Positions 1 through 7,781 of a stretch of 64,000 nucleotides of DNA are shown here, one piece after another (positions within the stretch are counted from its first letter, which is position 1; every line of letters begins with the position of its first letter). This stretch comes from a virus. The DNA lies in IMG/VR virus record IMGVR_UViG_3300032304_002285, positions 116,759-180,758 of that record; one strand, written 5' to 3'. A program made the position numbers and the translations under genes. The notes beneath the pieces were generated by a model, which had not been told where the DNA came from, made no database searches, and was given only the letters and a program-made list of their open reading frames with translations.

Positions 1-1083
1 ATGAGTGGAATCCCATATAGGGATTTTAAGTTGGCTACGATTACTGATGAAAATTTGGAAAAATGGAAAACAATAATGGAGGTAGATTTAAGGCAACCCG
101 GAATTGGGAGAATTTTTGTAAAAGAAGTTCCAGCTTTTACTGATATCACTTTGATTGAGGAGGCGATTAGGGAATTAGAGGCAAAGGGAATTAAGATTGA
201 TGTTGTGATCATTGACCATTTGCCCCACGTAAAACCGGTTGAGCAGGCTTGGGGGGAATTTGATGAACAAGGGAAAGCTGCTACTGATTGTAAGGAGTTG
301 GGTAGGGCTTTCCATTTGGCTGTGGTTACTGCAACTCAGGCTTCAACAGAAGTAGAAAAGAAACAGACTAAGGGAAAGGCTGCTGGGAAGATGGATGTAT
401 ATGGATCTAAGGAGCAGGTTCATGTAGCAAATACCTCTATTGCTGTGACTGTAACCGGGAAAGACGATTCAGATCTCAGCATTCCAGAATGGGAAAGAGA
501 TGTTTATTGGAGTGTTGATATCAAAAAGAATCGTGATGGTGCTTGTTTCGCATTTAAGGCTGTTCATCATGTAAAATATGGATTTGTTGAGGAAAGGAAG
601 GAGGAGCCTAAGCAGAATAAGGCGGTAGATAATTCATTAAATAATGCTGTTGGCGAAGTAGGGAAAGGAACAGAGAAAGGGAAACAGAGCAAGAAGCAAG
701 AAGAGAAGACAACGGAAGAAAAGCCAAAGGAAGAGAGTACAAAGGAAGTGGATCAAGAGGAAAAACCGAAAGAGGATTCACAGCAGGAAGAAAAACAAGT
801 AGAGGATGATCCAAAGCCTCAAGAGGAAGTTAAAAAAGAGGAAGAGGTGGAGGTTGGTGTTGATGCGGGAGTTCCAATTTCTTTTCTTGATAAACAAAAG
901 GCTTTGGAAAAAACAGGAATGAAACCAATAGCTAATAGTGAAATAGAGACTTCGGATGAGGCTATGGAAGAAGTGAAAAAATTAGTTATTACTAATCAGC
1001 CGGTTGCCATTTCTCAGCCGAAGGTGGAAAAAACTTTGGTAAGTACAATTAAGAAGCCAAAAATTTTAGGTTTTAATTCTTAG
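1..1083 (+). CDS. dnaB: DnaB-like (SF4) replicative helicase, C-terminal part (5' end probably outside the window), with long Glu/Lys-rich tail
   Basis: IIDHL, ATQAS, YGSKEQ and DIKKNRDG resemble SF4 helicase motifs; ORF starts at the window edge; lies just upstream of the primase. Confidence 0.75.
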   Translation: MSGIPYRDFKLATITDENLEKWKTIMEVDLRQPGIGRIFVKEVPAFTDITLIEEAIRELEAKGIKIDVVIIDHLPHVKPVEQAWGEFDEQGKAATDCKELGRAFHLAVVTATQASTEVEKKQTKGKAAGKMDVYGSKEQVHVANTSIAVTVTGKDDSDLSIPEWERDVYWSVDIKKNRDGACFAFKAVHHVKYGFVEERKEEPKQNKAVDNSLNNAVGEVGKGTEKGKQSKKQEEKTTEEKPKEESTKEVDQEEKPKEDSQQEEKQVEDDPKPQEEVKKEEEVEVGVDAGVPISFLDKQKALEKTGMKPIANSEIETSDEAMEEVKKLVITNQPVAISQPKVEKTLVSTIKKPKILGFNS

Positions 1084-1110
1084 GATCAGGGTGAGGATTG
1101 GGTTCTCAAC

Positions 1111-1118
1111 GGTATAAT
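1111..1118 (+). promoter_or_regulatory. GGTATAAT -10-type promoter candidate
   Basis: TATAAT in the intergenic gap 45 nt upstream of the next ATG; same GGTATAAT in other gaps (14860, 38242, 63254). Confidence 0.55.
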
Positions 1119-1162
1119 GGTTTGTCGTTCAATTTGGGAACAAAAGACAGAAGGGCAATCAG

Positions 1163-2170
1163 ATGAAGAAGGATCAGGAAGAAATGGTTAATCAAGCTGA
1201 AGAGCATGCCTTGCTGATGTCTCAGGGAATTGGGAGTTCTTTTGCTGGGATTTATTATGTTGAATCGGCTTATGTTAAGCTGACAGCCCAGAATAAGAAA
1301 TATACCGATTTGATTCTGCGGGATAAGTCTGGTGGGAGAAACGTAAAGTACTGGGGAACGGTTCAGGATGTGAATGCTGGGACCTTTGTTTTAGTTTCTG
1401 CAATGGTTGAGGATTATCAAGGTAGCCCTTCTATCATTGCCAAGAATCTGGAAAAGGTTGATGATCCAGATGATTTGTCAGATTTCATTGCTGTTTTTGA
1501 GAATATTAAAGAGGTTGAAGATCGGTTTGTTCAACTTGTGGATCAGGTTGTAAAGATGGAGTCTCAAGAAGGGCAAGAAACCTGTACTCTTCTTCTTGGT
1601 GAGGTTTTTGATGCTAATGAGGCTTTGTATCAAAAGTTTGTGGAATCTCCGGGGAGTGAGAATCCCTATTATGGAAGGATGGGAGGATTGCTTGTCTCTA
1701 CTGTAAACGTTGCTGAGAATGTTATGGCATTGGCTGGACGTTATGAGATGTCTAATATGGAAAAGGCTATTGCTCTAACTTCTGCTCTGTTGCATAAGAT
1801 TGGTGCAGTTGATGGTTTTGAGTTCAAGAATTGTTTGCCTAAAACAACCAAGAAGGGTTTGTTGTTGGGCTTGAACAATTTGACATTCAATCGGATGTCC
1901 ATTGCTATTAGGAAGGCTGTTGCAGAGGCGAAGGCTCAGGGGAAGGCTGTATCTCAGGAATTGATTCTGCTTATTCTGCATGCGGTTTCTTCTTATGATG
2001 AGACTTCTGTAAAGCCGATGTCTAAGGAGGCATTGCTTCTTTCTGCTGCTGTTAAGTGTGATAAGGAAATGGTTGAATCTTTCGATTTCATTTCCAATGA
2101 TCTTAATACTTCGGAAGAGTTTACGGCTTATGACGTTCGTAAGGGACGTAAATATCTTCGGGGTGCATAA
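1163..2170 (+). CDS. YhaM/Cbf1-like OB-fold plus HD-domain protein with degenerate HD motif
   Basis: N-terminal OB fold (YTDLILRDKSG, VEDYQGSPSIIAK); HD region reads GGLLVST and LLHKIG instead of GGLxxH and LLHDIG. Confidence 0.7.
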   Translation: MKKDQEEMVNQAEEHALLMSQGIGSSFAGIYYVESAYVKLTAQNKKYTDLILRDKSGGRNVKYWGTVQDVNAGTFVLVSAMVEDYQGSPSIIAKNLEKVDDPDDLSDFIAVFENIKEVEDRFVQLVDQVVKMESQEGQETCTLLLGEVFDANEALYQKFVESPGSENPYYGRMGGLLVSTVNVAENVMALAGRYEMSNMEKAIALTSALLHKIGAVDGFEFKNCLPKTTKKGLLLGLNNLTFNRMSIAIRKAVAEAKAQGKAVSQELILLILHAVSSYDETSVKPMSKEALLLSAAVKCDKEMVESFDFISNDLNTSEEFTAYDVRKGRKYLRGA

Positions 2171-2173
2171 CCA

Positions 2174-3268
2174 GTGGAACTTGGAATTAAAGAACAGCTT
2201 CGGTATCGAGATATTTCCTGGTTAATGTCAGGGGTAGATATCGAAGCTGTTATGGGAAAGCTAGGGACTAAGATTCATGGATGGTCAGGGGATCGTGTCA
2301 TAGGATTTTGCCCTGACCATCATCTTTTCATTAATAGGAGACCGTCCCACCCTAGATGGATGTTAAGCATTAAGACTGGAGAGACTTTTTGTTTAACGGA
2401 AGGCAGGGGAAGCAATCTTCTTTGGACAATTTGCCGTCTCTTTGATTGTTCTCCTAAAGATGCGATTAGCATTATAACGGGGGAAGAGTCTGGGTCTTTG
2501 ACTGAACAGAGGATTCAGTTGAATTCCATTCGGGGTAGATTGCGGAGGATGCGTGAGGTTGAAGAAGTGGTTGCTCCTAAGATCGTTCAGGGGTTGGACG
2601 ATATTGGTAAGGATTTGGTAGAAAAGCCAATTTCCCAGAGGTGCTACGATTTTTTCATTAAGCCTCCCAATAAGCCTCATCCAACTAACATAAAAAAAGA
2701 GACGGTTGATCGGTATAGTATCTTTGAAAGAACGTGGGGGTACTATTCGGATAGGGCTATTATTCCTTTTTACATGAGGAAGGAGCTTAAGGGTTTTGCT
2801 GCTATAGATCTTCTTGGGGAAGACGAGTGGAAGAAGAAGCATCCTTTGTCCGATAATTACAGGAAGACTCTTACAGCTATAAACTTTCAGGTGGCAGAAT
2901 ATCTATTTGGCTTTGATGATTGTCAGAAGGGTGCAGACTGGCTAATCGTCACAGAAGGTCCCAGAGAAGTCATGAAGCTTTGGCAGGAGGGGTTTCCTAA
3001 TGCTGTTGCTACTTTGGGGATAAACATTGCCCCAGGCCAGCATAGGCTTTTTGCCGAGTTGATGCCCAAAAACATTGTTCTGATGTATGATGGGGATGCA
3101 CGAGGTCTGGCTGCAATGGATAAGATCGGAGAGAGTTTTGTAAGAATTTTTGGAAAAAAACACGTTCATAAGTGCCTCTGCCCCAATGGTTATGATCCTA
3201 AGAACTTATCAGCCAATGAGTTAATTTCCCTATTTAATGGGTTGAAAGATAAGGGTTTTGGAGTATAA
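2174..3268 (+). CDS. dnaG: DNA primase, DnaG-type (Zn finger plus TOPRIM)
   Basis: FCPDH...H...C Zn-binding region; TEGPREV, AVATLG and MYDGDARG TOPRIM motifs. Confidence 0.88.
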   Translation: MELGIKEQLRYRDISWLMSGVDIEAVMGKLGTKIHGWSGDRVIGFCPDHHLFINRRPSHPRWMLSIKTGETFCLTEGRGSNLLWTICRLFDCSPKDAISIITGEESGSLTEQRIQLNSIRGRLRRMREVEEVVAPKIVQGLDDIGKDLVEKPISQRCYDFFIKPPNKPHPTNIKKETVDRYSIFERTWGYYSDRAIIPFYMRKELKGFAAIDLLGEDEWKKKHPLSDNYRKTLTAINFQVAEYLFGFDDCQKGADWLIVTEGPREVMKLWQEGFPNAVATLGINIAPGQHRLFAELMPKNIVLMYDGDARGLAAMDKIGESFVRIFGKKHVHKCLCPNGYDPKNLSANELISLFNGLKDKGFGV

Positions 3269-3332
3269 TTGAGTGGTTGGCTTTATTAGGCTTTGAATAG
3301 GCTGCCGAATTATCGGCTTGTAGAAAAAAGGC

Positions 3333-4100
3333 GTGGGTATGTCAGACAATATTGCTCGTTTCCCTGTTTCTCTCCTTGATTTGGTTAGTTATTTTAATGG
3401 GACCAATCGGTGTAAAGACCCGAATTGTCGTTGCCATTTAGCTATGGCTAATCACTCTCACCTTGTCGAATCTTCCCCCATTGTCCGGGTCCCTGTCACT
3501 CAGAAGCATGCTGTTGCCATTCTTTCTGGCAAGTTTGTTTGTGAGGACAAAAACTGCAAGTGTCACAAAAGTAGTGCTTATATTGGCGATGCTTTCTATG
3601 AATCAATAAATAAATTGGTTTGGAAGTTGGCTAATAAATATGCAATCACTTGCAAATTAGATGACGTGAAGGACTTGGGAGGTATTTGTTTTAATCGAAT
3701 CGTCAAGATGCTTCACAAGTATGATCCAAAGTACGAGTTCTCTACTTGGGTTTGGACGGTTTGTGAAAACATCCTTCGCCATCAGTGCGAGAAGACTAAG
3801 AGGTATATTGACGTTTTTCAGCCGGTTGACGATGATACTAATTTAATTGGCAAGAAAGAAGGTGATTCTTTTCTTTTTGCTGAAATGGTATCAGCCATTG
3901 ATGACTTGAAAGAAGAGTTCCCGGCTTGGGAGGGCTTCTTGACTGCTTTATTTGGTAATACAAAGGAGGCTGGGTATTGCATGCCCGATGCTGTTTGTAT
4001 TGCCAAGTCTGCTCGTGTTGCTGGAAGATCTTACAATGAGGTTCACCTCTTTATGAAAGAGGTTGTGAGACCTTTTTTTTCTGAGAGATTCGGGTTGTGA
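3333..4100 (+). CDS. Sigma70 region 2-like phage sigma factor with N-terminal Cys/His motifs
   Basis: YDPKYEFSTWVWTVCENILR resembles region 2.3-2.4; two CxDxNCxCH motifs at the N-terminus. Confidence 0.6.
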   Translation: MGMSDNIARFPVSLLDLVSYFNGTNRCKDPNCRCHLAMANHSHLVESSPIVRVPVTQKHAVAILSGKFVCEDKNCKCHKSSAYIGDAFYESINKLVWKLANKYAITCKLDDVKDLGGICFNRIVKMLHKYDPKYEFSTWVWTVCENILRHQCEKTKRYIDVFQPVDDDTNLIGKKEGDSFLFAEMVSAIDDLKEEFPAWEGFLTALFGNTKEAGYCMPDAVCIAKSARVAGRSYNEVHLFMKEVVRPFFSERFGL

Positions 4101-4131
4101 TTTAACTGAAGAGAAGAGGAGATGTAAAAAA

Positions 4132-4890
4132 ATGGGAACGGAAGAGGCTGAGAAGAGTGTTGTTGCTGGAGCAAAGGTTCATCATTCGGCTACTTGCTGG
4201 GGACATTTTGATAAGAAAGCCAAGGAATGCTCACAGTGCTTGGTTTTCCAAGCGTGTCTGGAGGCTACTGTCAATATTAACACGCTACAGGCTTCTCCTG
4301 CTAAGGCAAAGCCGGTAGCTACAGTTACTCCTGCTCCTGTGGTTATTGCTACTCCTGTGGCTCCTGTTGTTGCTTCTGGGTGTGTTGCGTCCTCTTCTCC
4401 TGTCCATAAGAAAGTGGTTAAGCCAGAAATTTTGGCGACTCCTGTTAGGACGGCTGATGTTGAGGTTGTGAAAAAACAGGAAGAGGATGTTCCTGTTGAA
4501 GAAATTAAGATTGAGGTAAAAAAGGAAGAGCCAAAGGTTCTTGCGATTGTCCCGGAAGTTGCTCCTGTGTTGGTTGTGGAGCCTCAGAAGGATGATTTGG
4601 ATCAGCTTCCTATCATTAACATGTTGAAGGAAAAGCTTGGAGTAGAGCCGAATGTTAAGGGTGGGTTTGGTTCTGATGTCTATCTCTTCATTTATGGAGA
4701 GGATAAGGGTTTGCAGGTTGTCCTTCAAAAGGCATCTGGTGATGCTGTTTTCATGAATAAGGACGGGGTTAAGAAGGAGTTTTCTTATTTTAAGACAGTG
4801 AAGGTAAAGGGAGGGAAGCCAACGAAAGAAAGGCTTTCGTATCAAGAGAAGACCAAGAAGATTCAAGAAATCTTTGACGCTGTTCTCTAA
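4132..4890 (+). CDS. Hypothetical protein with N-terminal Cys4 motif and Pro/Val/Ala-rich linker
   Basis: CWGHFDKKAKECSQCLVFQAC; SD-like GAGGAG upstream. Confidence 0.6.
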   Translation: MGTEEAEKSVVAGAKVHHSATCWGHFDKKAKECSQCLVFQACLEATVNINTLQASPAKAKPVATVTPAPVVIATPVAPVVASGCVASSSPVHKKVVKPEILATPVRTADVEVVKKQEEDVPVEEIKIEVKKEEPKVLAIVPEVAPVLVVEPQKDDLDQLPIINMLKEKLGVEPNVKGGFGSDVYLFIYGEDKGLQVVLQKASGDAVFMNKDGVKKEFSYFKTVKVKGGKPTKERLSYQEKTKKIQEIFDAVL

Positions 4891-4891
4891 T

Positions 4892-5791
4892 ATGTATACG
4901 ATTGACTTTCCTTATTATCAGCCTCCTTTTCCGGAATATAATCCGGTCCAAAGTGCTGTAATTCCGTTCATTGATAAAGATATGAACGTGGTTGCAGCAT
5001 TTGGAACAGCAACAGGGAAGACAGTCTTAGCCGAATGTGCTTTTGCTTATCACTTAAGTCAAAATGATTCGGCTAGGGTTGTCTTTGTCTGTCCTTTCCG
5101 TAGCCTTAGTGAGGAAAAGTTTAAGGCTTGGAAAGCGAACGATCAATTGTCTAAGTACTCTGTGGTTATTAGCACTAGTGACCATGGAACTACTCCTGAG
5201 GAATTCATACAGGGGAGATTGTCGATTGTAACCTCAGAGTCTTTTGATTCAAAGGTTCGGGGAAGTCGGTACCGGGATTGGGTCAATTCAATTACTTGTG
5301 TTGTAGTTGATGAGGCTCATATCATGGGGGAAAGAAATGGTTCGATAGAGACATCATTGATGAGAATAACCAAGATAAATCCTCAAGCGAGGATTATTCT
5401 TCTTTCTGCTACGCTGGGTAATGCTATAGATTTGGCGAAGTGGTTGAAGAAGCTGAATGGTAAAACAACGAAATGTTTTACTAGTAGTTGGAGACCAACA
5501 GCTATTACTACTGAAATTCATGTGGTAGAGGATGGATATCAGGATAAGATAGATAAGGCTGTTGAGCTTGCTTCTAATAATGAAGGGAAGATCATTATTT
5601 TTGTTCATTCAAAGGTTCTTGGTGCTGATATATGCAAGAGGTTGAAATCTTCCGGTTTTAGATCTGCTTTCCATAATGCTTCTTTGTCATTTGCTTTAAG
5701 AAACAAAATAGAAAAAGCTTTTTCTGATCCAAGATCTGGATTGGATATTTTGGTCTCAACAAGCACTTTGGGTGCGGGTGTAAATTTATAA
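4892..5791 (+). CDS. Hel308/Ski2-like SF2 helicase, N-terminal chain (motifs I to start of V)
   Basis: GTATGKT, DEAH, LSAT and FHNASL; ends STSTLGAGVNL-stop. Confidence 0.85.
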   Translation: MYTIDFPYYQPPFPEYNPVQSAVIPFIDKDMNVVAAFGTATGKTVLAECAFAYHLSQNDSARVVFVCPFRSLSEEKFKAWKANDQLSKYSVVISTSDHGTTPEEFIQGRLSIVTSESFDSKVRGSRYRDWVNSITCVVVDEAHIMGERNGSIETSLMRITKINPQARIILLSATLGNAIDLAKWLKKLNGKTTKCFTSSWRPTAITTEIHVVEDGYQDKIDKAVELASNNEGKIIIFVHSKVLGADICKRLKSSGFRSAFHNASLSFALRNKIEKAFSDPRSGLDILVSTSTLGAGVNL

Positions 5792-5802
5792 TATGGTGTT
5801 TT

Positions 5803-6357
5803 ATGTCTTTGCAGGAAATTAAAGAAAATTGTTTGTCTTGTAAAGCTTGCCCTTTAGGTGGCAGGGGAGTTGTTTTTTCTAATATGAATGAACAAGCTTC
5901 TATCATGGTTATTGGTCAGAGTCCGGGAAAGGACGAGGTAAGGGAGGGAGAGCCTTTCGTTGGGGTTTCTGGTAAGAATTTTGATGAAGCAATAAAAGAA
6001 CATGTTGGGCTAAACCGTTCATTCTTTTATTTTTCAAATGTAATTCGGTGTTTGGTTCCGGAAAAGTATTTACTTACAGAGCAGAATTTTTCAGCTTGTC
6101 GAGTTCATCTTGATAGAGAGATAAAGGAAGTCAATCCAGTTTTGATTGTTACTTTGGGATCATCAGCTTTCGAGTCATTAACAGGGATGCATGGCTTGAT
6201 GAAGCATCATGGGAAGTTTATTATTTCTTCCCGATATATGATTCCGGTTCTTCCTTTGTTGCATCCTTCTCCTTTGGTGATGAACAATGTGGAGACTAGA
6301 GATCTTTTTATTAAAGACTTAAAGAAGATTCGGGAGTTTATTTCACAAAATGGCTGA
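5803..6357 (+). CDS. udg: Uracil-DNA glycosylase family 4 (Fe-S)
   Basis: CLSCKACPL, GQSPG, EPFVGVSG, SNVIRC and LLHPS. Confidence 0.9.
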   Translation: MSLQEIKENCLSCKACPLGGRGVVFSNMNEQASIMVIGQSPGKDEVREGEPFVGVSGKNFDEAIKEHVGLNRSFFYFSNVIRCLVPEKYLLTEQNFSACRVHLDREIKEVNPVLIVTLGSSAFESLTGMHGLMKHHGKFIISSRYMIPVLPLLHPSPLVMNNVETRDLFIKDLKKIREFISQNG

Positions 6358-7336
6358 TAGAGTAATTATTGTTGGCGCAAGTCGGCGTGGTGAGAGAATT
6401 CCCATTGGAAGTTTACGCCAAATGTGCGGACGAGCGGGAAGAGGGCATGAGTTAGGGGAGTGCCATGCTGATTTAATTGTGGCTGAAAGCGATGCTGATT
6501 ATGTAGAGAATGGATTAAATCTTGCAAGTGAGTTGAGCATATCTTCTGTCTTGAGTAAAAAGAATCTTTTGGCTTTTCATATTCTTCCTGAGATTGCATC
6601 AGAAGAAGTTTTGGATGTAGTTAGTGCTGAGTTATGGCATGAAAGAAGTTTTCATTCTTATCTTGGATTTGAGGTTAAGTGGGAAAAGATTTTTGAGTTT
6701 TTGTCTGAGCATGGTTGTGTAATTTGGGATGGTAATTTCGTAAAGATTACTCCTCTGGGGAGTATTACTGCTTCTTATTATTTCCATTCTTCAGATGTTT
6801 GTGATTGGAAGAATAATTTCTCTTTCATTTTTGAGCTTGGCTTAGAGAATGATGATCTTGCCTTGGCTTGGGCTTTGGGTAATGTAAGGAACAATCGTCG
6901 TTCTGGTGATTGTAGCAAGTTGGGTGAGATAATAGAGGATTGTCGCAACCGTCTTCCTGTTCCCTTGGAGATAGATGATGGTTGTGTATTGACTGTTCTT
7001 TTATGGTGGCATGTTTTTGGTGGTCCTCCGGTTGGCAAGTTAAAGAATCAATCAATCGAGTTAAAGAGTGACTTTGGAAGAATTTACAAGGTTCTTTCTG
7101 CTATTGATTCTGATGTATCTAATTGGGGAATGCAGAGTTTTTTTGATGATCTTTTGCTTAGGTCTAAAAAAGCAATTTCTTCGGAGCTTGTCAAACTTAT
7201 CAAAATCGGCGGTATAACAAAGGGACAGGCAATAGCCCTAAAGGATAGGGGTATTAGCAATCGTAAGGAATTATTGGAGTCTAAAGAGCATATGGACCTT
7301 ACAGATGTTCTAGGAGAGGGATATGACTTTTCCTGA
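6350..7336 (+). CDS. Hel308/Ski2-like helicase, C-terminal chain (rest of motif V, motif VI, winged helix, ratchet, HhH)
   Basis: Starts MADRVII, which continues GVNL[P]ARRVII; QMCGRAGR is motif VI; ITPLGSITASYY; GGGAG SD upstream. Confidence 0.8.
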   Translation: MADRVIIVGASRRGERIPIGSLRQMCGRAGRGHELGECHADLIVAESDADYVENGLNLASELSISSVLSKKNLLAFHILPEIASEEVLDVVSAELWHERSFHSYLGFEVKWEKIFEFLSEHGCVIWDGNFVKITPLGSITASYYFHSSDVCDWKNNFSFIFELGLENDDLALAWALGNVRNNRRSGDCSKLGEIIEDCRNRLPVPLEIDDGCVLTVLLWWHVFGGPPVGKLKNQSIELKSDFGRIYKVLSAIDSDVSNWGMQSFFDDLLLRSKKAISSELVKLIKIGGITKGQAIALKDRGISNRKELLESKEHMDLTDVLGEGYDFS

Positions 7337-7781
7337 AAGGGCTGTTTTGACTTGTGCATCCCGGCTTAAATCCGGAAAGGTTTACGAAAGTGATATTCGT
7401 AATATCTTGAAGTGCATAAAAGTTGATGTTTCCCCGATAGAGCCTTTTTTAAATCATGTAGATTCCCTTGTACGGATGGCTGCAATTAGGATTATAGGGG
7501 CAAAGGGGAATGTTAGTTTGTTGTTTAATGTGTTGAGAGACGAGCAAGATAAATCAATTGTATTTGAGGCTATGAGGCATCTAGGGAAGCGAGGGGGAAA
7601 TCTTGAAGATCTAGTTGGGATTTTAGAATCAAATGATTCTATGATGAAGCAAGAAGCTATCGCCATGTTTAGACGTTCGGGAAATGTTGATTGTTTGTTC
7701 CCGTTATTATTTGATCAGGATCAAAATATAGTTAGTCAAGTCAAGGAGTATTTTGATGAGCGAGAAAGAAAATGTGTTTAG
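7323..7781 (+). CDS. HEAT-repeat protein
   Basis: Repeated helical units (VRMAAIRIIG, IVFEAMRHLG, MKQEAIAMF). Confidence 0.65.
   Translation: MTFPERAVLTCASRLKSGKVYESDIRNILKCIKVDVSPIEPFLNHVDSLVRMAAIRIIGAKGNVSLLFNVLRDEQDKSIVFEAMRHLGKRGGNLEDLVGILESNDSMMKQEAIAMFRRSGNVDCLFPLLFDQDQNIVSQVKEYFDERERKCV

Follow-up and report, generated by a model that had tools for sequence, protein, structure and literature searches.

The locus and the question

The question raised by this locus is whether a superfamily 2 (SF2) helicase encoded in two pieces, with a uracil-DNA glycosylase (UDG) gene lying between them, is one enzyme built from two chains, a damaged gene, or part of a machine in which DNA unwinding and uracil excision are joined. 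The window, that is the whole stretch of DNA that was analysed, is 64,000 nucleotides long (positions 116,759 to 180,758 of IMG/VR record IMGVR_UViG_3300032304_002285), and the 181-kb record from which it is taken is a single metagenomic contig with a CheckV completeness of 51%. The helicase genes lie directly downstream of other replication genes (Table 1), whose order (1..4890) is repeated in relatives, and the HEAT-repeat neighbour on the other side is also found in two related loci (L006 and L008), an instance of conserved synteny. The reading favoured here, to which a probability of about 80% is attached, is that a lineage of large phages makes a two-chain Hel308-type helicase, that the split is an old and conserved one and that the UDG gene is a later passenger.

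Table 1. Positions of genes, helicase motifs and the gene overlap in the window
Feature	Position	Strand	Remarks
DnaB-like helicase	1-1083	+	Pfam
Unknown gene	between DnaB-like helicase and Toprim primase	+	
Toprim primase	2174-3268	+	Pfam
Sigma-70 region-2-like protein	3333-4100	+	Pfam
Cys-rich protein	4132-4890	+	
Helicase N-half (chain 1)	4892..5791	+	299 aa, ends ...STSTLGAGVNL, stop TAA
Walker A / motif I, GTATGKT	5003..5023	+	N-half residues 38-44, read off the translation
Motif II, DEAH	5309..5320	+	N-half residues 140-143, read off the translation
Motif V, STSTLGAGVNL, and TAA stop (break point)	5756..5791	+	
UDG, family-4-like with Fe-S ligands	5803..6357	+	184 aa, PF03167 E 4.7e-26
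8-nt overlap, ATGGCTGA	6350..6357	+	Chain 2 start codon within the end of the UDG gene
Helicase C-half (chain 2)	6350..7336	+	328 aa, starts MADRVIIVG
Motif VI, QMCGRAGR	6419..6442	+	C-half residues 24-31
HEAT-repeat protein	7323..7781	+	PF13646 E 2.8e-6

Two halves of one helicase

Translation confirmed the ends given to the two reading frames by the initial annotation (GVNL-stop at 5791 and MADRVII at 6350). The N-half comprises RecA1 and the first two-thirds of RecA2, up to the motif V loop; PF00270 matches it with an E of 9e-24, and the match to PF00271 covers positions 2-81 of 110 only. The C-half holds the last RecA2 strands with motif VI, followed by the winged-helix, ratchet and helix-hairpin-helix (HhH) domains. 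Motifs I, II and III (GKT, DExH and SAT) are all in chain 1 and invariant across 26 N-halves, G42 and K43 of Walker A and D140, E141 and H143 of motif II being among the invariant residues of the alignment, and in 38 C-halves G27, R28 and R31 of motif VI are invariant and Q24 nearly so. Motifs IV-VI of RecA2, including QxxGRxGR, are therefore present but distributed over two polypeptides.

The assignment to a family rests on several comparisons. A Pfam search of the window's C-half gave zero matches; a profile built from 38 stand-alone C-halves aligned with residues 341-488 and 601-676 of the Hel308 structures 9b15 and 2p6r (E 7e-30). On phrog_6819, a Hel308-like profile of 645 positions, the N-half occupies 21-302 and the C-half 330-485, and the predicted structure of an unsplit relative (pLDDT 85.6) has a TM score of 0.65 to whole Hel308 chains. 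With the NCBIfam Hel308 equivalog model NF040935 the halves score 95.6 and 27.5 bits, below its cut-off of 1200, as is expected of half-length, distant phage proteins, and the helicase is accordingly classed as Hel308-like rather than as a Hel308 orthologue. Archaeal Hel308/Hjm and the lipothrixvirus "Holliday junction branch migration helicase" (phrog_6819; 2p6r, 2va8, 9b15) have the same motifs and five domains, but each of them is a single chain, and their identity with the phage proteins is only about 25%. As judged from sequence, the two halves together are a complete Hel308-type helicase.

It is very unlikely that the products work independently, the N-half for example as a stand-alone ATPase and the C-half as a DNA-binding protein with no joint helicase. 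The separate start codons and the complete winged-helix, ratchet and HhH DNA-binding domains of the C-half would suit such an arrangement, and the association of the two chains is itself deduced from conservation, but the break lies inside RecA2, so that neither chain holds a complete second RecA fold. In SF2 helicases the arginines of motif VI act on the ATP bound by motifs I and II, and here those arginines are invariant on the C-half while motifs I and II sit on the N-half. Furthermore, the halves are both present and adjacent in every locus that has enough flanking sequence.

The junction and its expression

An unsplit homologue of 675 aa from the huge phage LR756511.1 reads ...LAWGLNLPARRVVILG... 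over the break point, from which it follows that no residue has been lost and that a Met stands in place of a Pro; the proposal that the halves join seamlessly is thereby borne out. In the model of the unsplit relative the equivalent point falls in a loop (313-325) between RecA2 strands 309-312 and 326-329. It had also been pointed out that the gap keeps both halves in one frame, which is true of the window but without meaning, as the same holds for 7 of 21 distinct split relatives, about the one-third expected by chance. Gaps in the split loci are between -1 and 1741 nt long, and the relative frame of the two halves shows the variation to be expected of chance.

The claim that chain 2 has its own Shine-Dalgarno sequence did not survive closer inspection: the GGGAG in question sits 13 nt upstream, beyond the spacing of 4-12 nt seen upstream of 27 of the 60 long ORFs in the window. 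A clearer signal is the overlap ATGGCTGA between the end of the UDG gene and the start of the C-half, which suggests that translation of these two genes is coupled. In cargo-free relatives the two halves overlap directly as an ATGA stop/start. A frameshift fusion of UDG and C-half was considered and rejected, there being no slippery heptamer upstream of 6350 and the geometry of the overlap being variable in relatives. Promoter-like matches were no commoner than in shuffled sequence; terminator-like matches exceeded the shuffled mean, but none marks a clear transcript boundary within the three genes. The UDG and the helicase halves are likely to be co-expressed from one operon.

A single polypeptide might in principle be restored by intron splicing, protein trans-splicing, ribosomal bypass or frameshifting, and the seamless joint and shared frame of the halves in the window are what such a process would leave. 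We regard this as extremely improbable. An Rfam search of 4500-7700 found no group I or group II intron, in agreement with the initial annotation, and with E values up to 1 gave two chance matches (a plastid UTR and a snoRNA), both under their gathering scores. Nor are there intein residues at the junction, as had likewise been noted, since the N-half terminates in GVNL and the C-half begins with MAD; no flanking intein blocks accompany the break. The variable length and chance frame relation of the gap speak against restoration as well, and the gap is filled by a conserved ORF that is under selection.

Spread, age and conservation of the split

The loci of relatives were collected by an alignment-based scan; a locus scan with single sequences returned nothing for chain 2 and one fragment for chain 1. 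Among proteins of 164-524 aa there were 142 matches to the N-half, and the best 120 of these are 45-100% identical to it and mostly 297-330 aa long, with a few shorter; more than 120 database proteins of about 300 aa stop at this point. Stand-alone C-halves of about 330 aa form many clusters at 50% identity, with the alignment starting from residue 1. In each of the 30 split loci the break falls at G[VI][NTS][LIVM], with 0-4 additional residues, and the sequence resumes with M[ASI][DE]xV. The initial annotation had suggested looking for the same split and the same insert in relatives: the split was found in abundance, but the insert only in part, as 18 of the 30 split loci have UDG in the gap and 12 have other contents or none.

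In the helicase tree a branch with an SH-aLRT of 100% separates the 30 split loci from 38 fused or intein-containing loci, and when archaeal-virus outgroups are included the split clade has a support of 98%. N-halves within this clade are 36-100% identical to that of the window. The split clade would thus appear to be monophyletic and derived from an unsplit ancestor, most simply once. Both halves give dN/dS values of 0.05-0.2 in pairs with measurable dS, which restricts the estimate to the closer pairs as dS is saturated in most. The genes that are two adjacent ORFs here are contiguous in relatives, and purifying selection acts on both.

Given a single contig of a record that is 51% complete, artefact and decay have to be considered, whether through misassembly or through an insertion that turned the helicase into a pseudogene, but the chances of either are minimal. 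The split architecture recurs in dozens of independent assemblies (JGI, ENA and Logan); the frames are open, the motifs invariant and the dN/dS low in both halves. The depth of the clade, its occurrence in independent metagenomes, the retention of the motifs and dN/dS values far below 1 together lend strong support to the proposal of the initial annotation that this is a natural two-chain SF2 helicase. Among the papers searched, none was relevant to a split Hel308 or any other split helicase in phages.

The UDG gene in the gap

The gene in the gap had been described as an intact family-4 UDG, and this is correct as far as the open frame and the fold are concerned but not in the details of the active site. 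The score to PF03167 is 92 bits against a cut-off of 24.3, which places the protein in the fold of the UDG superfamily, the structure is predicted with a pLDDT of 95.6 and the closest solved structure is the family-4 UDG 4zbx (E 1e-26). With Thermus UDGa (1ui0) and the Sulfolobus enzyme (4zbx) it shares the fold, the four Cys ligands of the Fe-S cluster (C10, C13, C83 and C99, invariant in 14 UDG copies), the HPS of motif B, the uracil-recognition Asn and the stacking Phe; F52 is conserved, and N79 and H154-P-S-P are invariant. N79 and H154 align with N80 and H155 of Thermus UDGa (PMC5387724). Unlike family-4 enzymes, in which motif A is GE[AG]PG, the phage clade has GQ[NS]PG throughout (GQSPG in the window, GQNPG in relatives). 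In Thermus UDGa the change E41Q alone causes an approximately 900-fold loss of activity, which a QD doublet restores (PMC5387724). The window copy is alone among the 14 relatives in lacking the nearly invariant N88, R89 and P91; at position 88, the counterpart of the motif-3 Asn N89 in Thermus UDGa (PMC5387724), it has K, whereas N is found in at least 90% of relatives. The score to the NCBIfam family-4 model TIGR00758, 106.7 bits, is under the cut-off of 125.3.

Contents of the gap and the status of UDG

The contents of the gap fall into several classes: empty, with an ATGA overlap or 4-26 nt between the halves (L004/5, L020, L021, L028/65 and L029); UDG alone; UDG with companions, which in some gaps are a Vsr/DUF559-type homing endonuclease, a SLOG gene or small ORFs; and ORFs unrelated to UDG (L024/62, L026 and L027/64). 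Most gap ORFs of relatives had no Pfam or PHROG match. The UDG genes that occupy the gap in the 18 loci are orthologous, and their tree gives the same six sister pairs as that of the helicase. The locus L004/5, whose gap has no UDG, sits inside the group of UDG carriers with 100% support. UDG does not visibly account for the split, since it is absent from the deepest split subclade. It would appear that UDG entered one subclade once, has been inherited vertically since and was lost at least once.

The initial annotation went further and proposed that the helicase might be coupled to uracil excision. In its strongest form this would be a three-part repair machine, confined to the UDG subclade, in which UDG binds or bridges the reassembled halves and links uracil excision to the remodelling of forks, and it is an unlikely one. 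It draws on the fixation of UDG in this gap over a deep divergence, with copies 40-54% identical to that of the window, the helicase's own sister pairs and a dN/dS of 0.07 in one pair, and on the tight packing of the genes, with overlapping stop and start codons, inside a replication module. Against it, 12 of 30 split loci have no UDG in the gap, a complete genome of 329 kb (G003) encodes the split helicase but is entirely free of UDG, UDG has been lost inside its own clade (L004/5) and unrelated cargo occupies the same place in relatives. In LR756511.1, where the helicase is unsplit, UDG lies 100 kb distant. The window UDG also forms the longest branch of its tree and has given up the nearly invariant residues of the active-site region mentioned above. 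Finally, no UDG-helicase fusion was found among N-half homologues of up to 524 aa or in the 10 intermediate-length C-half matches that were checked; six candidates (P0186, P0218, P0247, P0256, P0221 and P0197) proved to be truncated unsplit helicases or intein remnants. The variable contents of the gap and the UDG-free split genome favour the two-chain helicase but not the coupling to UDG. Retention in the gap over such divergence, together with the dN/dS of 0.07, does indicate that UDG is of use in itself, and within the UDG subclade it may have some functional link to the helicase.

Selfish elements at the motif V loop

Four unsplit relatives (L035, L056, L060 and L068) contain an in-frame insert of 433-434 aa with the boundaries AWG|C...HN|CN[FL]P, and that of L035 matches Pfam Intein_splicing and LAGLIDADG_3, identifying it as an intein, three residues upstream of the break. 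The presence of a LAGLIDADG intein in the same loop of unsplit relatives marks this loop as a hotspot for selfish elements. In two split loci a DUF559/Vsr-like endonuclease gene lies immediately 3' of the N-half (L008 and L022; DUF559 E 3e-7 and 9e-11, and phrog_3339 "homing endonuclease") and has lengthened the tail of the N-half to 21 aa in L008 and 13 aa in L022. No split-intein pieces were found at the break in the 30 split loci, which apart from these two tails have only 0-4 extra aa, and the window has no homing endonuclease gene between the halves.

One sequence complicates the history. P0154, an observation of a single 6.5 kb contig, is an unsplit protein of 659 aa that reads ...GVNLSCDRAIIV... 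and has the gene neighbourhood of the split clade. In the best tree it falls on a long branch within the UDG-bearing subclade, with a support of 97%, and a position inside the split clade means that a single split would require a re-fusion or else a second split. A tree that forces all split sequences together is 14.6 log-likelihood units worse and is not rejected (p-AU 0.12). The motif V loop may then be a site-specific landing pad, with breaks at the same residue that were repeated, or with one break and a re-fusion in P0154. Taken as a whole, this would make the junction a protected cargo bay (for UDG, thyA, SLOG and endonucleases) whose cargo is perhaps a partner of the helicase in the UDG subclade. 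We consider it doubtful, if somewhat less so than the three-part repair machine; were it true, inserted genes would be guaranteed both co-expression and co-inheritance.

Proposed explanation

The reading preferred here is that the Hel308-type helicase of the replication module would be made as two polypeptides in this large-phage lineage, the break falling in what is predicted to be the surface loop of motif V within the second RecA domain. The N-half would bring motifs I-III with the ATP site and the greater part of RecA2, and the C-half the final RecA2 strands, the motif VI arginine finger and the winged-helix, ratchet and HhH domains; as the catalytic parts are divided between the chains, one working ATPase/translocase would need the reassembly of both, and we infer from their conservation that the halves reassemble by fragment complementation. 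They would be translated separately from one operon, by way of the ATGA overlap in the cargo-free form and of the overlap with the UDG stop in the window. The ancestor was probably unsplit and, on the simplest view, the split happened a single time, perhaps by a frameshift that produced the ATGA overlap or by the insertion of an endonuclease or other cargo that was lost later, and the junction would afterwards have become a landing site for genes. The family-4-like UDG may have joined one subclade once and been inherited with the helicase since, as a co-expressed passenger and not as a required subunit, and homing endonuclease genes, a SLOG gene and unknown ORFs would have come to lie at the same junction in other members. 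On this account selfish elements would have targeted the motif V loop repeatedly, and the loop would also withstand a break in the chain.

Comparison with known systems

A helicase encoded by two genes is not a new kind of system. In T4-type phages, genes split by the insertion of an endonuclease still yield active enzymes, and the cases described are nrdA/mobE of Aeh1, the T4 topoisomerase 39/60 with mobA, and gene 43A/43B of Aeromonas phages (PMC2988022). As in these, an essential gene of DNA metabolism that is contiguous in relatives has been divided, at a point critical for function, into a pair of adjacent ORFs whose products would have to reassemble; the stop codon overlaps the start codon, and a free-standing endonuclease lies at the cut, here in L008 and L022 though not in the window. 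The present case differs in that an SF2 Hel308-type helicase is cut within a RecA domain at motif V, in that the gap is most often taken up by a repair gene, UDG, rather than by an endonuclease, and a cargo-free ATGA form exists, and in that the T4-like examples are from single phages whereas the split here is fixed over a deep clade (N-halves down to 36% identity).

Dassa et al. (2009) described Vsr-related homing endonucleases between gene halves (PMC2677866). Their fractured genes resemble ours in being phage replication or repair genes broken at conserved motifs, in having a Vsr/DUF559-related putative homing endonuclease between the halves (here L008 and L022) and in that the unsplit relatives of the present helicase hold a contiguous intein at almost the same site. 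[quoted passage not shown] The helicase in their list is of the gp41/DnaB type, and the Hel308 type is not listed (PMC2677866).

Implications

Whilst no support emerged for the proposed link to uracil repair, the locus appears to provide a natural and evolutionarily stable SF2 helicase in which two chains make up the second RecA domain. The split would mark a place at which the SF2 motor tolerates a chain break, and so may offer a system for the study of fragment complementation and for split-helicase engineering. There is also a practical consequence for annotation, in that the half-genes of large phages are labelled separately as "DEAD/DEAH helicase" and "hypothetical". At one loop of one family, the gene is found intact, with an intein, split with an ATGA overlap, split with a homing endonuclease, split with stable cargo and possibly re-fused, and these states of gene breaking are the intermediates called for by models of gene fracture (PMC2677866).

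The split helicase in the window

Between positions 4892 and 7336 there are three closely packed genes on the + strand, namely the N- and C-halves of a Hel308-like helicase with a uracil-DNA glycosylase (UDG) gene between them, and the ATG of the C-half overlaps the UDG stop (ATGGCTGA). Translation of these genes is probably coupled. Pfam recognised DEAD and positions 1-81 of 110 only of Helicase_C in the N-half, and UDG (E 4.7e-26) in the middle gene; the C-half gave no Pfam match. In PHROGs the halves occupy positions 21-302 and 330-485 of a single 645-position profile, phrog_6819, a Hel308-like 'Holliday junction branch migration helicase'. The window is the final 64 kb of a 180,758-bp IMG/VR virus record with a CheckV completeness of 51%, and the genes around the split helicase are a replication module, with a DnaB-like helicase, a Toprim primase, a sigma-70 region-2-like protein and a Cys-rich protein on the 5' side and a HEAT-repeat protein on the 3' side. 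In all relatives examined, the positions of the sigma-like gene and of a small gene are unchanged.

Coordinates of the window genes, contents of the gap between helicase halves in relatives, and related features
Feature	Locus and position	Strand	Remarks
Sigma-70 region-2-like protein	window 3333-4100		immediately 5' of helicase
Cys-rich protein	window 4132-4890		immediately 5' of helicase
Helicase N-half, 299 aa	window 4892-5791	+	motifs I (GTATGKT), II (DEAH), III (SAT); C-terminus ...STSTLGAGVNL, stop TAA
UDG-superfamily ORF, 184 aa	window 5803-6357	+	11-nt spacer after N-half
Helicase C-half, 328 aa	window 6350-7336	+	N-terminus MADRVIIVG; contains QMCGRAGR
ATGA stop/start overlap, no cargo	L028/65, L029		
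Short gap, no cargo	L021, L020, L004/5		4, 17 and 26 nt, measured between aligned halves
UDG as sole cargo	window, L006 and copies, L014-17, L070, L071		
UDG and additional ORFs	L009-13		
Small ORF and SLOG/YspA-family gene, then UDG	L023:5217-5561 (SLOG/YspA)		PF10686, E 4e-14; between N-half and UDG
Endonuclease-like protein, 269-290 aa, then UDG	L008:4956-5765, L022:4942-5814		directly 3' of N-half
Conserved ~120-aa ORF unrelated to UDG, and small zinc-ribbon ORF	L024/62, L026, L027/64		UDG-free subclade; gap at L024:5130-5870, L026:5057-5428, L027:4933-5495
Split helicase without UDG	L072:4527-6833		intein within C-half motif VI
In-frame intein, otherwise unsplit helicase	L035:4913-6214		
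Unsplit helicase P0154, 659 aa	L076:4001-5980		

In the 595-kb phage LR756511.1 the homologue is unsplit (675 aa) and has the sequence ...ATSTLAWGLNLPARRVVILG... where the window's break falls; the window differs from it there by the replacement of a Pro with stop/Met, with no other residue missing, bearing out the initial annotation's claim that the halves join without loss. A profile of stand-alone C-halves matches the archaeal Hel308 structures 9b15 and 2p6r at 341-488 and 601-676 (E 7e-30). The unsplit relative L057 was modelled with AlphaFold (pLDDT 85.6; TM 0.65 against whole Hel308 chains); its motif V forms a loop, residues 313-325, flanked by RecA2 strands 309-312 and 326-329, and the window's break maps between residues 322 and 323, within that loop, so that the cut falls inside a domain. 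The C-half contributes the final strands of RecA2, the helix of motif VI and every accessory domain. In SF2 helicases the motif VI arginines act on the ATP site; here these invariant arginines lie on the C-half and the site is held by the N-half, and neither chain contains a whole RecA2 domain, which makes it unlikely that the halves act independently of one another. The two chains would rather reassemble into an active helicase.

Conservation of the split

A length-restricted protein search found 142 relatives of chain 1 (the N-half) of 164-524 aa, the best 120 of which show 45-100% identity and are mostly 297-330 aa long. An exhaustive profile-free search found 431 relatives of chain 2 (the C-half), including many 50%-identity cluster representatives of ~300-357 aa whose alignment starts at residue 1. 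Both halves were placed by tblastn in each of 61 IMG/VR loci, gathered via the N-half alignment, and nine loci from JGI, ENA and Logan assemblies; 30 were split, 34 unsplit and four carried an in-frame insert. The N-halves of the split loci end in G[VI][NTS][LIVM] followed by 0-4 extra residues, with longer tails in L008 and L022, and the C-halves always begin M[ASI][DE]xV. GKT, DExH and SAT are invariant across 26 N-halves and the G-R-x-x-R core of motif VI across 38 C-halves, dN/dS for either half is 0.05-0.2 (unsaturated-dS pairs only), and the halves are both present and adjacent in every locus with enough contig. Both halves are under purifying selection, and the conservation of the split, the motifs and the low dN/dS rule out a pseudogene or misassembly. 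The two-gene split described initially, for which a search of related phages had been proposed, thus recurs at the same position in relatives, with UDG in the gap of some and other contents or none in others.

The gap ranges from -1 to 1741 nt. The initial annotation had stressed that a 561-nt gap keeps both halves in one frame; this is true of the window, but among 21 distinct loci 7 have both halves in one frame, as expected by chance, and the common frame therefore carries no meaning. Translational bypass or frameshifting was rejected, neither gap length nor frame being conserved. The absence of intein ends and of an intron core at the split, also noted initially, was upheld: an Rfam search of 4500-7700 found no intron, and there are no spare residues at the junction for an intein or trans-splicing.

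Origin of the split

In a maximum-likelihood tree of the concatenated halves the 30 split loci are separated from 38 unsplit or intein-bearing loci by a branch with 100% SH-aLRT, and rooting on lipothrixvirus helicases gives a split clade (support 98%) derived from unsplit phage helicases. The split loci are monophyletic, with one caveat. P0154, an unsplit helicase known from a single 6.5-kb contig, reads ...GVNLSCDRAIIV... across the break point, shares the neighbourhood of split relatives (primase, sigma-like gene, helicase, downstream gene) and is closest to members of the split clade (41% to L020). The best tree places it on a long branch inside the UDG-bearing subclade (97% support), which suggests either re-fusion or a second independent break at the same residue; the data do not reject a tree in which all the split rows stay together (p-AU 0.12).

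UDG as cargo

UDG is absent from the deepest split subclade (eight loci) and present in 18 of 22 loci of the other. L004/5, a UDG-free lineage, lies within a group of UDG carriers (100% support); UDG was therefore lost there whilst the helicase stayed split. Six sister pairs in the UDG tree are identical to those of the helicase tree, which indicates a single acquisition followed by vertical descent. The complete 329-kb genome G003 (locus L064), with terminal repeats, carries the split helicase and gave no match to PF03167 in any part of its sequence, and the search was likewise negative in two other genomes, 78% and 62% complete. In LR756511.1, with its unsplit helicase, UDG lies 100 kb from the helicase. 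No fusion of UDG to either half was found among the 164-524 aa N-half relatives and the intermediate-length C-half matches checked. UDG is therefore not required by the two-chain helicase, nor is it visibly the cause of the split. The suggested coupling to uracil excision is thus not borne out, although UDG is almost certainly co-expressed with the halves; its long retention and a dN/dS of 0.07 (one pair) show that the phage benefits from it. UDG is a passenger of long standing, dispensable to the split helicase, and the cargo is variable. The ~120-aa protein found in other gaps (L024, L026, L027) had no family match, and the accompanying zinc-ribbon ORF weakly matched a Lar-like restriction-alleviation PHROG (E 1e-4).

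The window's UDG had been described as an intact family-4 gene. The ORF is indeed intact (structure model pLDDT 95.6), retains four Fe-S cysteines, F52, N79 and H154-P-S-P, and has the family-4 enzyme 4zbx as its best solved relative (E 1e-26), but it falls below the NCBIfam family-4 cut-offs and is best filed as a family-4-like, putative enzyme. Motif A is GQSPG (GQNPG in relatives) against GE[AG]PG in family 4, and in Thermus UDGa E41Q alone lowers activity ~900-fold, except where the residue after it is changed to Asp (PMC5387724). N88, R89 and P91, otherwise nearly invariant, are replaced in this copy only of 14 relatives, the first aligning with the motif-3 catalytic-water Asn, N89, of Thermus UDGa. 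The window copy is also the longest branch of the UDG tree and may have reduced or changed activity.

Selfish elements at the motif V loop

Four otherwise unsplit relatives (L035, L056, L060, L068) carry an in-frame LAGLIDADG intein of 433-434 aa (AWG/C...HN/CN[FL]PARR) in motif V, three residues upstream of the split point; the L035 insert matches Pfam Intein_splicing and LAGLIDADG_3. Every intein-bearing allele pairs with an intein-free sister, the pattern expected of a homing intein. A second intein site occurs in the 768-aa C-half of L072, where a LAGLIDADG intein directly follows ...IRQM/C in motif VI. The database proteins P0175 and P0213 look similar. The protein from the free-standing gap gene of L008 and L022 has several zinc ribbons and, at its C-terminus, a DUF559/Vsr-like nuclease domain; it matches both a PHROG 'homing endonuclease' and the Vsr-related family described by Dassa et al. 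2009 (PMC2677866). Insertion of the gene displaced the N-half stop, adding tails of 21 aa (L008) and 13 aa (L022). The motif V loop is a hotspot for selfish elements.

Inteins and Vsr-type endonuclease genes at this loop resemble intermediates discussed for 'fractured genes' (PMC2677866). Unlike fractured genes, the split helicase has no split-intein pieces at the break, and its chains therefore cannot be rejoined. No description of a split Hel308-like helicase in phages turned up in the library of papers searched. There is also a likeness to the endonuclease-associated genes-in-pieces of T4-like phages, in which the split enzymes are active (PMC2988022), and the two-gene Hel308-like helicase, real and conserved, falls within this known phage theme.
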